NCBI GenBank assembly: GCA_964016885.1
Contig: OZ024741.1
Span: forward strand, 288,920,001 to 288,984,000
Reading direction: 5' to 3'
Length of the DNA: 64,000 bases
DNA from: Eledone cirrhosa
Lineage: Eukaryota
The translations under genes and the position numbers were made by a program. Shown one piece after another: positions 19,920-22,437 of the stretch (the first letter of the stretch is position 1; each line of letters opens with the position of its first letter). A model generated the notes under the pieces. That model was not told the origin of the DNA. It was given only the letters and a program-made list of their open reading frames with translations, and made no database searches.

Positions 19920-20270
19920 GAAATAAAGTCTACAATTCATATTGTCACTTTATATATATATATGTGAATATATATATATATATATATATATATATATATA
20001 TATATATATATATATATATATATATATATATATATATATATATATAAACAATTAAGTTAAAAATGTACATCCACATATGTATACTGAAATACTAGTATGC
20101 ATATGAATACACACACGTGTACATATGTAGATGTACCGAGTTTTTCACTGGTCACTTTACTGTGAGTGTCCAGCTATTCTGTATGTAAACACACAGACAA
20201 ACCGGTTTTTAGAGTCATACTGGTTTTCGAGGAAACACCTTTCCTCTATTCTCTAGAAAGCCAGACAAGG

Positions 20271-20315
20271 AATATTAGACTAGTTTCGATGTTGTTACAT
20301 CTCATCAGCAATATT
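20271..20315 (-). ncRNA. Type I hammerhead ribozyme, family F, unit 1
   Basis: Minus: aatattg-CTGATGA-gatgtaacaacatc-GAAA-ctag-TC-taatatt (G-U at the first helix I pair). Confidence 0.85.
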
Positions 20316-20734
20316 TACCTATCTTCCGGCCTTTCTAGAGAATCGTAAAAGCACATATCGTTATATGCTTTTTCTATTAAAATTAGTAGTGGGCAGACTA
20401 ATTTGCATAGAGCGTGAGTACGTACCGGTTCAACGGAGACGATAAAAACAAATAACGAAACGAAATTAAATTTCGTTTCGTTTGTAACTCATTTTTGTAT
20501 GACTGACGCTTAAACAATTAAGTTAAAAATGTACATCCACATATGTATACTGAAATACTAGTATGCATATGAATACACACACGTGTACATATGTAGATGT
20601 ACCGAGTTTTTCACTGGTCACTTTACTGTGAGTGTCCAGCTATTCTGTATGTAAACACAGACAAACCGGTTTTTAGAGTCATACTGGTTTTCGAGGAAAC
20701 ACCTTTCCTCTATTCTCCAGAAAGCCAGACAAGG

Positions 20735-20779
20735 AATATTGGACTAGTTTCGATGTTGTTACATCTCATCAGCAATATT
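20735..20779 (-). ncRNA. Type I hammerhead ribozyme, family F, unit 2
   Basis: Minus: aatattg-CTGATGA-gatgtaacaacatc-GAAA-ctag-TC-caatatt. Confidence 0.9.
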
Positions 20780-21126
20780 TACCTATCTTCCGGCCTTTCT
20801 AGAGAATCGTAAAAGCACATATCGTTATATGCTTTTTCTATGAAAATTAGTAGTGGGCAGACTAATTTGCATAGAGCGTGAGTACGTACCGGTTCAACGG
20901 AGACGATGAAAACAAATAACGAAACGAAATTAAATTTCGTTTCGTTTGTAACTCACTTTTGTATGACTGACGCTTAAACAATTAAGTTAAAAACGTACAT
21001 CCACATATGTATACTGAAATACTAGTGTGCATATGAATACACACACGTGTACATATGTAGATGTACCGAGTTTTTCACTGGTCATATGTGCTTTTACGAT
21101 TCTCTAGAAAGGCCGGAAGATAGGTA

Positions 21127-21171
21127 AATATTGCTGATGAGATGTAACAACATCGAAACTAGTCCAATATT
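21127..21171 (+). ncRNA. Type I hammerhead ribozyme, family F, inverted unit
   Basis: 7-bp helix I aatattg/caatatt, 5-bp helix II gatgt/acatc, palindromic helix III ACTAGT, GUC. Confidence 0.9.
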
Positions 21172-22437
21172 CCTTGTCTGGCTTTCTGGAGAATAGAGGA
21201 AAGGTGTTTCCTCGAAAACCAGTATGACTCTAAAAACCGGTTTGTCTGTGTGTTTACATACAGAATAGCTGGACACTCACAGTAAAGTGACCAGTGAAAA
21301 ACTCGGTACATCTACATATGTACACGTGTGTGTATTCATATGCATACTAGTATTTCAGTATACATATGTGGATGTACATTTTTAACTTAATTGTTTAAGC
21401 GTCAGTCATACAAAAGTGAGTTACAAACGAAACGAAATTTAATTTCGTTTCGTTATTTGTTTATATATATATATATATATATATATATATATATATATAT
21501 ATATATATATGTGTGTGTGTATGTATATATATATATATATATATATATATATATATATATATATATATATATATATATATATATATATATATATATATGT
21601 TTGTATGTATATATATGCAGAATTCTAAGAGAAGGAAAACTCTGATATAACACCTGCAACCCTAATGGCATCCAATGATGTTGACTTGTTCTTCTTTTTG
21701 GTAAATATCATCTTGGTTAAGAGAGTGGGACTGGCTTTGTGCAGTGCCTTTGCTCACTATAAAAGCTTCACGGCACAGGCATTGCTTTATATCTGGAGAT
21801 CTCTCTGCACTTGCCGTCACATGGTACCATGATCCCAGCACTATGTATCAATAATTGTCACAAGTGTAGTGTTTGTACCAGAGTTTTCAAGTCGCTGGCT
21901 CGACTAAAAAGTCACACTCGTTCAGCGCATCGGTAGGGGTTCTCCTACATGGATATAAAGTAGTGGTCGTACTCGAAAACGAGTTGGCAGCCACCATATA
22001 TATATATATATATATATATATATATATGTTTGTATGTATATATATATATATTTATATAGAGAGAGTGAGAGAGATATATTTAAAATCCCGACCGCTGCAC
22101 CAAGTGGTTTCGGTGTGTGTGTCCAGCAACCTTTTTCCTCTCACCATGTATCGAGTACTCACATGGTCACCTCGATCTCTGCACTACAGACTCTCTCTCT
22201 CTTTCTCCCTCTCACTCTCTCCCTCTCTCTACACACACATATATATATATATATATATATATGTGTGTGTGTGTGTGTGTGTGTGTGTGTGTGTGTGTGT
22301 GTGATTAAATGTAGATATTCGATGGTGATCGGTAAATGACCACAGGTAAAAATATAATCGAAACATTGGTAGAGTATAAGTATCTTTATTTTATATAGCA
22401 AAATAGTTTTTATTCATATGAAATCATCAAGAATGAA

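Follow-up and report, generated by a model that had tools for sequence, protein, structure and literature searches.

Metazoan non-LTR retrozymes are described as non-coding tandem units, each with one type I hammerhead ribozyme, a GC content below 50% and a self-paired monomer (PMC7229834), and they are multicopy, dispersed and co-occur with Penelope-like elements (PLEs). The retrozyme papers give this co-occurrence together with phylogeny, and they call the mobilisation mechanism unresolved (PMC7229834; bioRxiv 10.64898/2026.07.22.740005). Newt satellite 2 and axolotl HHR_Amex1 have a helix III of one pair with a palindromic tetraloop and are mainly active as dimers (PMC7229834). EN+ PLEs, for example Poseidon of Anolis (PMC11167929) and Neptune and Naiad (PMC8557442), insert as partial tandems with an inverted 5'-truncated copy and a tail at one end, use two internal RT starts near an A/C-rich stem-loop, and have AT-rich or (TA)n targets (PMC11167929, PMC8557442). 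The inverted 5'-truncated copy, a 30-40 bp tail at one end and a (TA)n bias are regarded as PLE hallmarks (PMC8557442), and a purified PLE was seen to nick both strands and to extend them from two internal sites lying next to each other (PMC11167929). The minimal hammerhead of PLEs has a helix II of 7-8 bp, an extra base before it and a short helix I (PMC4209133). Hammerheads from cephalopods were found in the literature solely as 235 hammerhead-1 loci of the giant squid genome (PMC6962438).

Judged by its sequence, the 464-nt repeat at 20045-21462 of the window (the whole 64,000-nt stretch of DNA that was analysed) is a metazoan non-LTR retrozyme, new within the known animal retrozymes, and every sequence feature of that class was found. 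At 464 nt, the unit is slightly longer than the 150-450 bp given by Cervera (PMC7229834) and lies inside the 51-972 bp of Li et al. (bioRxiv 10.64898/2026.07.22.740005), whose definition of an active element, two consecutive units with complete hammerheads, also describes the array. RNA and circles have been demonstrated for published retrozymes (PMC7229834), whereas this array is known from DNA alone. It shares the helix III of newt satellite 2 and HHR_Amex1, which differ in having their own sequence of about 330 nt, while the host here is invertebrate-like. The window is AT-rich, with many microsatellites, and may be of octopus origin. The anatomy of EN+ PLE insertions is also shared; unlike these elements, the array has a canonical hammerhead and a tail of about 69 nt rather than 30-40 nt. 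With no RT/GIY-YIG ORF and a hammerhead that is not minimal, this locus is, on sequence, not an autonomous EN+ PLE. Chlamys PLEs such as MRC1 are likewise non-autonomous and form multicopy head-to-tail insertions by PLE machinery, but they belong to green algae and most are without canonical hammerheads (PMC8557442). The plant LTR retrozyme, with type III hammerheads in its LTRs and a 4-bp TSD, is not matched: here the hammerheads are type I, the flanks are (TA)n, and the unit repeats in tandem with neither an internal segment nor LTR architecture. As animals commonly carry tandem hammerhead repeats, the locus itself is nothing unusual. Paired fixed 3' ends, a head-to-head inversion, insertion targeted to (TA)n and copies bearing edits are treated below; none of these was found described in the text of PMC7229834 or of Li et al., and the supplements of both papers may list similar families or ends.

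The tandem and inverted hammerhead array at 20045-21462 is real and not a product of chance. TRF gives a period of 464 with 2.2 copies and 98% matches at 20045-21084. This direct array of 2.24 units, with its ribozyme sense on the minus strand and its RNA-sense 3' end at 20045, comprises unit 1 (20045-20510, 466 bp), unit 2 (20511-20974, 464 bp) and a partial third unit (20975-21084, 110 bp). Both TRF and alignment bear out the seamless head-to-tail arrangement claimed in an earlier, sequence-only reading of this DNA, as the units abut and a spacer is absent. Units 1 and 2 are 98.4% alike, with seven substitutions over 576 aligned bp and one 2-nt AC indel. An inverted, 5'-truncated copy of 379 nt (21084-21462, plus strand), which has its RNA-sense 3' end at 21462, corresponds to 20446-20822 in reverse complement with one substitution and a 2-nt gap, and is fused head-to-head with the direct array at 21084, where the fused 5' ends have 1 nt of microhomology. 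The likely insertion target consists of a (TA)n microsatellite on the left (19951-20046; TRF and a recurrent junction in sequencing run X1) and a (TA)n/(TG)n microsatellite on the right (21462-21616; TRF).

Reads and contigs of the family were mapped onto one unit, 20380-20843. The array was claimed to be part of a recently active family, and it does belong to one that is young and very abundant: in run X1, 1176 contigs match the unit, with several flanks and a summed depth of 1.5-6.7e5 that is not a copy number, and 3432 reads match in X24, a genomic RAD run with the same species label as X1. Hi-C run X22 (same study as X5) has 0 matching reads, which says nothing either way. All copies in the locus carry family-minority alleles at the 20585, 20692 and 20742 phases and were therefore copied from one template. 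The unit closes on itself in three contigs of X1, two reads of X24 and one closed 495-nt contig (465+30) of X4, a run of unrecorded kind, and this closure is explained equally well by tandem DNA and by a circle. A fold-back at 20740, at most two bases from the predicted cut, is seen in one X1 contig and constitutes a single-contig lead. In addition, 16 other organism labels contain 14-37% of the sampled words, and the unit in X4, present as one closed contig, is 98% identical. No RNA run was listed among those containing the unit, which has no bearing on whether it is expressed. Horizontal transfer was not inferred from these shares, as close relatives, trace DNA and diet are alike possible and X4 alone was mapped.

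Three hammerheads are carried by the array. Hammerhead A (20719-20790, minus strand) has its core at 20772 and a predicted cut after 20742 (GUC|C); hammerhead B (20255-20326, minus strand) has its core at 20308 and a predicted cut after 20278 (GUC|U), with a G-U pair at the base of helix I; and hammerhead C, in the inverted copy (21116-21187, plus strand), has its core at 21134 and a predicted cut after 21164. All three cores contain CUGAUGA, helix II, GAAA and GUC, and the two intact minus-strand cores 464 nt apart and one plus-strand core that had been reported were thus found again. No hammerhead reached the Rfam gathering score in the whole window, in which two tRNA-like matches were the only ones to do so. 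In an E-value search of 19000-22000, A, B and C match Rfam Hammerhead_HH9 over its full length (model positions 1-77 of 77) at 38.9, 38.9 and 34.7 bits (E 1.2e-7, 1.2e-7 and 2.6e-6), all under the gathering score of 52. Matches to miRNA families in the same search were discarded as hairpin or low-complexity noise. The architecture is type I, with a helix I of 6-7 bp plus an internal loop, a helix II of 4-5 bp without the extra base before it, and a single-pair helix III topped by the palindrome in ACUAGU. As such, the array ribozyme is by its architecture of the canonical metazoan, dimer-dependent type and not of the minimal PLE type, and its activity is putative.

Variation among the family copies can be set against this structure. 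The majority have U at the cleavage site (depth of 223k out of 295k in X1; 343 of 533 reads in X24), that is, GUU|C rather than GUC|C in about two thirds to three quarters of copies. Compensatory A-U/U-A variants in helix II occur at similar frequency, with per-site X24 read counts of 174/588 at 20764 and 156/561 at 20753. When 27 family variants were placed on the fold, 23 were unpaired, pairing-neutral or accompanied by a restoring partner variant and four broke a pair; these 27 are from the 40 of 86 variants that were listed, 13 clustered T>C changes being left out. A divergent sibling family is present at 41458-41770 on the plus strand (61% over 368 nt), with the same hairpin, an octamer at 41527-41537 and a hammerhead core at 41615 (GUA). 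Helix I covaries between the two families, with three of six pairs changed on both sides and the core kept; the metagenome contig L001 was left out of this comparison, being misaligned over the ribozyme in the alignment. Taken on sequence variation, the ribozyme appears to be under structural selection. At 41420-41445, before the sibling element, there is a 19-nt exact reverse complement of the 3' end of the sibling hammerhead, to be explained by a short inversion on the 5' side or by an antisense lock.

The two outer ends of the array do fall at different phases of the unit (1 and about 400), as had been noted. Rather than being opposite ends of a single cDNA, each is a 3' end on the ribozyme strand; both lie in (TA)n, and they are about 69 nt apart in the unit. 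Among the six X1 loose ends listed, a (TA)n junction occurs before 20442 in six contigs and before 20511 in five; 92 further loose ends over all runs make other phases possible. As a diploid locus would supply at most two contigs per junction, the ends appear to be family-wide. The interval between the two recurrent 3' ends, here called the tail (20442-20510, minus strand), contains a long A/C-rich hairpin, the 3' base of which is the major end, and it resembles the PLE tail (PMC8557442, PMC11167929). Other dips in the profile are at least as large as the depth step seen at 20444 (330k to 629k). Loose ends of RAD reads at 20400, 20467-20469 and 20519 were not accepted as ends of the element since they coincide with AATT, which we take to be the restriction site of the enzyme behind run X24.

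These fixed ends bear directly on the proposal that a 464-nt circular RNA was reverse-transcribed from arbitrary entry points to give permuted copies. Circles have been demonstrated for coral, mussel and axolotl retrozymes (PMC7229834), and several features of the locus suit the proposal: the cDNA is longer than the unit and crosses two predicted cut sites, one haplotype runs through all units, and in the predicted fold the extended helix I brings the ends of the monomer together and would hold them there. The closed X4 contig could be added, with tandem DNA giving the same shape. The argument from permutation nevertheless fails because both outer ends are 3' ends that recur at fixed (TA)n junctions in X1; the expectation that other copies would start at varied phases likewise gave way to the same two junctions among the X1 loose ends listed. 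Entry was hence not arbitrary, and we regard this proposal as quite improbable. The inference from greater-than-unit length to a circle holds in so far as the template was longer than a linear monomer, but an uncleaved multimer fits equally well. Given that the 1040-nt arm crosses two cut sites and carries one minority haplotype, either a circle or an uncleaved multimer served as template, and the chance that the template was circular RNA is put at slightly below even. A circular template with fixed entry points would be compatible with insertion by a PLE.

The features of a PLE-mobilised insertion that were found at this locus are a partial tandem with an inverted truncated copy, two fixed 3' ends and a microsatellite target. 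We consider it probable that the array is a recent retrozyme insertion into (TA)n, likely made in trans by a PLE RT and GIY-YIG as two cDNAs from two fixed starts. Snap-back copying of the first cDNA was also considered for the inverted arm and not adopted, since a copy made in that way would not terminate at the 3' end that recurs in the family. A broken PLE ORF is present in the window at 33491-34420 (minus strand), with an RT thumb, a frameshift, a CX4CXXC linker and, at its C terminus, a GIY-YIG domain; it matches a 772-aa RT+EN protein at 72% identity, and such enzymes were therefore once present in this genome. The fragment is flanked by a 564-bp inverted repeat (32356-32919 and 34421-34983, 96%) and has no BLAST match to the 464-nt unit.

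The fully PLE-like insertion anatomy could also mean that the units are pseudo-LTRs of an autonomous PLE, the partial tandem being a product of ordinary PLE insertion with no retrozyme cycle. Xenopus retrozymes are sisters of PLE pLTRs (bioRxiv 10.64898/2026.07.22.740005), and the AUG inside the hammerhead core recalls an Anolis element with an ORF that begins from helix II (PMC11167929). Against this, the ORF from that AUG has 19 codons, the longest Met-ORFs of the predicted monomer being 19 aa (sense) and 71 aa (antisense), and a comparison of the array with 24 PLE proteins gave no match below E 1. The ribozyme, with its 6-bp helix I and 4-bp helix II, is of the retrozyme type and not the PLE minimal type (PMC4209133), the unit self-closes in three runs, and there is no ORF-like flank among the loose ends listed. 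Pseudo-LTRs are thus an unlikely origin of the units, and mobilisation of a retrozyme by a PLE enzyme in trans is preferred.

The RNA that would be mobilised can be described from folding. The predicted monomer between the two predicted cut sites (20278-20741, minus strand), the release and circularisation of which are predictions, is 67% paired at a GC content of 36%. As a circle it folds at -146 kcal/mol compared with -90.6 +/- 5.6 in 40 dinucleotide shuffles (z -10), and the antisense monomer has a z of -6.6. The double-hammerhead fold lies above the MFE by 1.4 kcal/mol in a 20790-20260 construct and by 5.2 kcal/mol in a longer one, and in a read-through RNA that includes the inverted arm the upstream ribozyme is predicted to be paired away. 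In vitro, one of nine predicted Xenopus dimers was cleaved (Li et al., bioRxiv 10.64898/2026.07.22.740005). Because of these folds and the Xenopus result, the dimer-type palindrome and the GUU majority in the family, the release of a monomer from the 20045-21462 locus that the sequence-only reading had predicted seems overstated.

A further feature that may bear on transcription is an octamer-containing motif, ATGCAAATTAG, found on the minus strand at 20398-20408 in unit 1, 89 nt upstream of the hammerhead core, and at 20862-20872 upstream of hammerhead A. It occurs three times in the window compared with 0.03 expected; two of the occurrences lie in the array and the third in the sibling family, each 77-89 nt upstream of a core. 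On the strength of its sequence it is possibly an internal promoter element. The promoter of newt satellite 2 includes an octamer, and the octamer of snRNA genes works from a position some 200 nt upstream of the start. If the motif acted at that distance here, the start would lie past hammerhead A and no monomer would come from this locus. An internal promoter of the snRNA type is known from newt satellite 2 (cited in PMC2220036), and a 2020 review states that metazoan retrozymes seem promoterless (PMC7761336). A pattern of octamer plus hammerhead had 0 matches in viral contigs and one in metagenome contigs, the animal-like contig L001 with a real hammerhead; as the pattern required the octamer, L001 gives no octamer frequency. 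The intron-like stretch L001:2449-2697 contains back-to-back palindromic octamers, a third octamer and, at the contig end, a type I hammerhead with ACUAGU.

Other genomic copies of the family, as seen in the X24 RAD reads, have clustered A-to-G changes on the ribozyme strand (20622-20689, minus strand), and the 20045-21462 locus itself is unedited. Approximately 112 X24 reads with one start have T>C at eight sites (20670-20674, 20682, 20688 and 20689), and every one of these reads shows 11 or more further differences; T>C at five sites (20622-20624, 20641 and 20643) is found in 52-69 reads. Of the ribozyme-strand A's across 20620-20691, 13 of 14 are changed where the 5' neighbour is U or A, versus 0 of 10 where it is C or G (Fisher p 5.6e-6); this test leaves out two T>C changes at a GCATGC restriction site, where a non-edited subfamily appears to start. 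A preference for 5' U or A is the neighbour rule of ADAR, the footprints of which are known in retroviral DNA. Around 200 other X24 reads span the clustered sites and are unchanged, making motif-driven sequencing error unlikely. The clusters therefore likely record ADAR editing of an RNA intermediate in at least one related copy, a signal from one RAD run and perhaps one or two loci among the 40 of 86 variants listed, with linkage of the edits on one read judged by equal counts, one or two starts and the 'cleanest' values. Since 11 of the 13 changed A's are unpaired in the monomer fold, the modelled structure suggests editing in a long duplex, as from inverted-arm loci, and not in the monomer. 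The broader T>C excess in X24 (32 versus 12 places) is biased by restriction sites, as is its strand-bias p of 0.002, and neither is relied on; X1 contigs show no strand excess (8 versus 5, p 0.29). No paper describing edited genomic copies of retrozymes came up in a search of the open-access literature, and Cervera 2020 (PMC7229834) and its preprint mention that heterogeneity of the circRNA could be due to editing.

These clusters also weigh on an origin at the DNA level, in which an old insertion would have been amplified as a satellite by unequal exchange or slippage, inverted by repair and left with a passenger ribozyme. Local tandem amplification after a single insertion has been proposed by Li et al. 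(bioRxiv 10.64898/2026.07.22.740005), and microsatellite flanks are unstable. Strand-specific A-to-G clusters in ADAR context point instead to an RNA step, ribozyme variation preserves structure, and the inverted arm stops exactly at the recurrent TA junction, which is not a point that repair would pick. A satellite of this kind is accordingly the most remote of the explanations, with very little probability left to it.

Under the preferred reading of a retrozyme inserted by PLE machinery, the ribozyme strand would be transcribed, possibly from an internal octamer-type promoter suggested by motif conservation. The transcript would then cleave itself at GUH, probably in the form of a double hammerhead made through the ACUAGU palindrome, to give the structured 464-nt monomer, which a host ligase could circularise. 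A PLE enzyme would then nick both (TA)n strands, with reverse transcription starting at the 20511- and 20442-equivalents. One cDNA of 1040 nt would run across two cut sites, from a circle or an uncleaved multimer, and the other would extend for 379 nt, the two presumably being joined head-to-head to give the anatomy observed at 21084. Inverted-arm loci could in turn produce long dsRNA for editing, probably by ADAR, and edited RNA may sometimes be copied back. The full combination of the family's own octamer or snRNA-type promoter, ADAR hyper-edited dsRNA and PLE reinsertion from two starts into (TA)n is put forward tentatively, as a possibility that falls somewhat short of an even chance; the dsRNA in it would come either from inverted-arm loci or from a sense-antisense duplex. 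If this combination is true, identical edits in successive units would indicate a circular template and differing edits a linear multimer, which would constitute a genome-only assay.

What the family contributes is, first, an insertion footprint in agreement with PLE biochemistry, and this bears on which enzyme moves animal retrozymes. Similarly, the likely editing footprint would fix the polarity and the RNA origin of some copies, and the candidate octamer motif bears on how animal retrozymes are transcribed. With paired fixed ends and likely edited copies, two open questions become testable from genome data.

Several other elements were observed in the window. A second retrozyme-like dimer lies at 10107-10769 (minus strand) between (TA)n tracts, with 2.1 copies of 320 bp that are 94-95% alike. 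Its hammerheads at 10605 and 10285 are degenerate, with a UUGAUGA/UUGAUAA core, a 4-bp helix II and a stable helix III. Hammerheads of the PLE type, mostly beside (TA)n, were noted at 3490-3790, 3293, 11934 and 22961 (minus strand), at 31685 and 37587 (plus strand), at 19484-19570 (plus strand), and at 43509 and 46264 (plus strand); they have a long helix II and a palindromic helix III, and 3530-3752 forms an inverted pair that is nearly perfect. ORF fragments similar to those of non-LTR retrotransposons occur at 15957-16535 (minus strand) and 50863-52884, with a zf-RVT match at 51024-51590. A block of about 2.75 kb is tandemly duplicated at 99-100% identity (43085-48471), representing a recent duplication or an assembly artefact. 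Lastly, a tRNA-derived element at 56044-56561, in inverted and partial-tandem arrangement between (TA)n tracts, contains the Rfam tRNA matches at 56172-56240 (minus strand) and 56400-56470 (plus strand), called as tRNA-Ser by ARAGORN, and is likely another passenger of the same insertion machinery.
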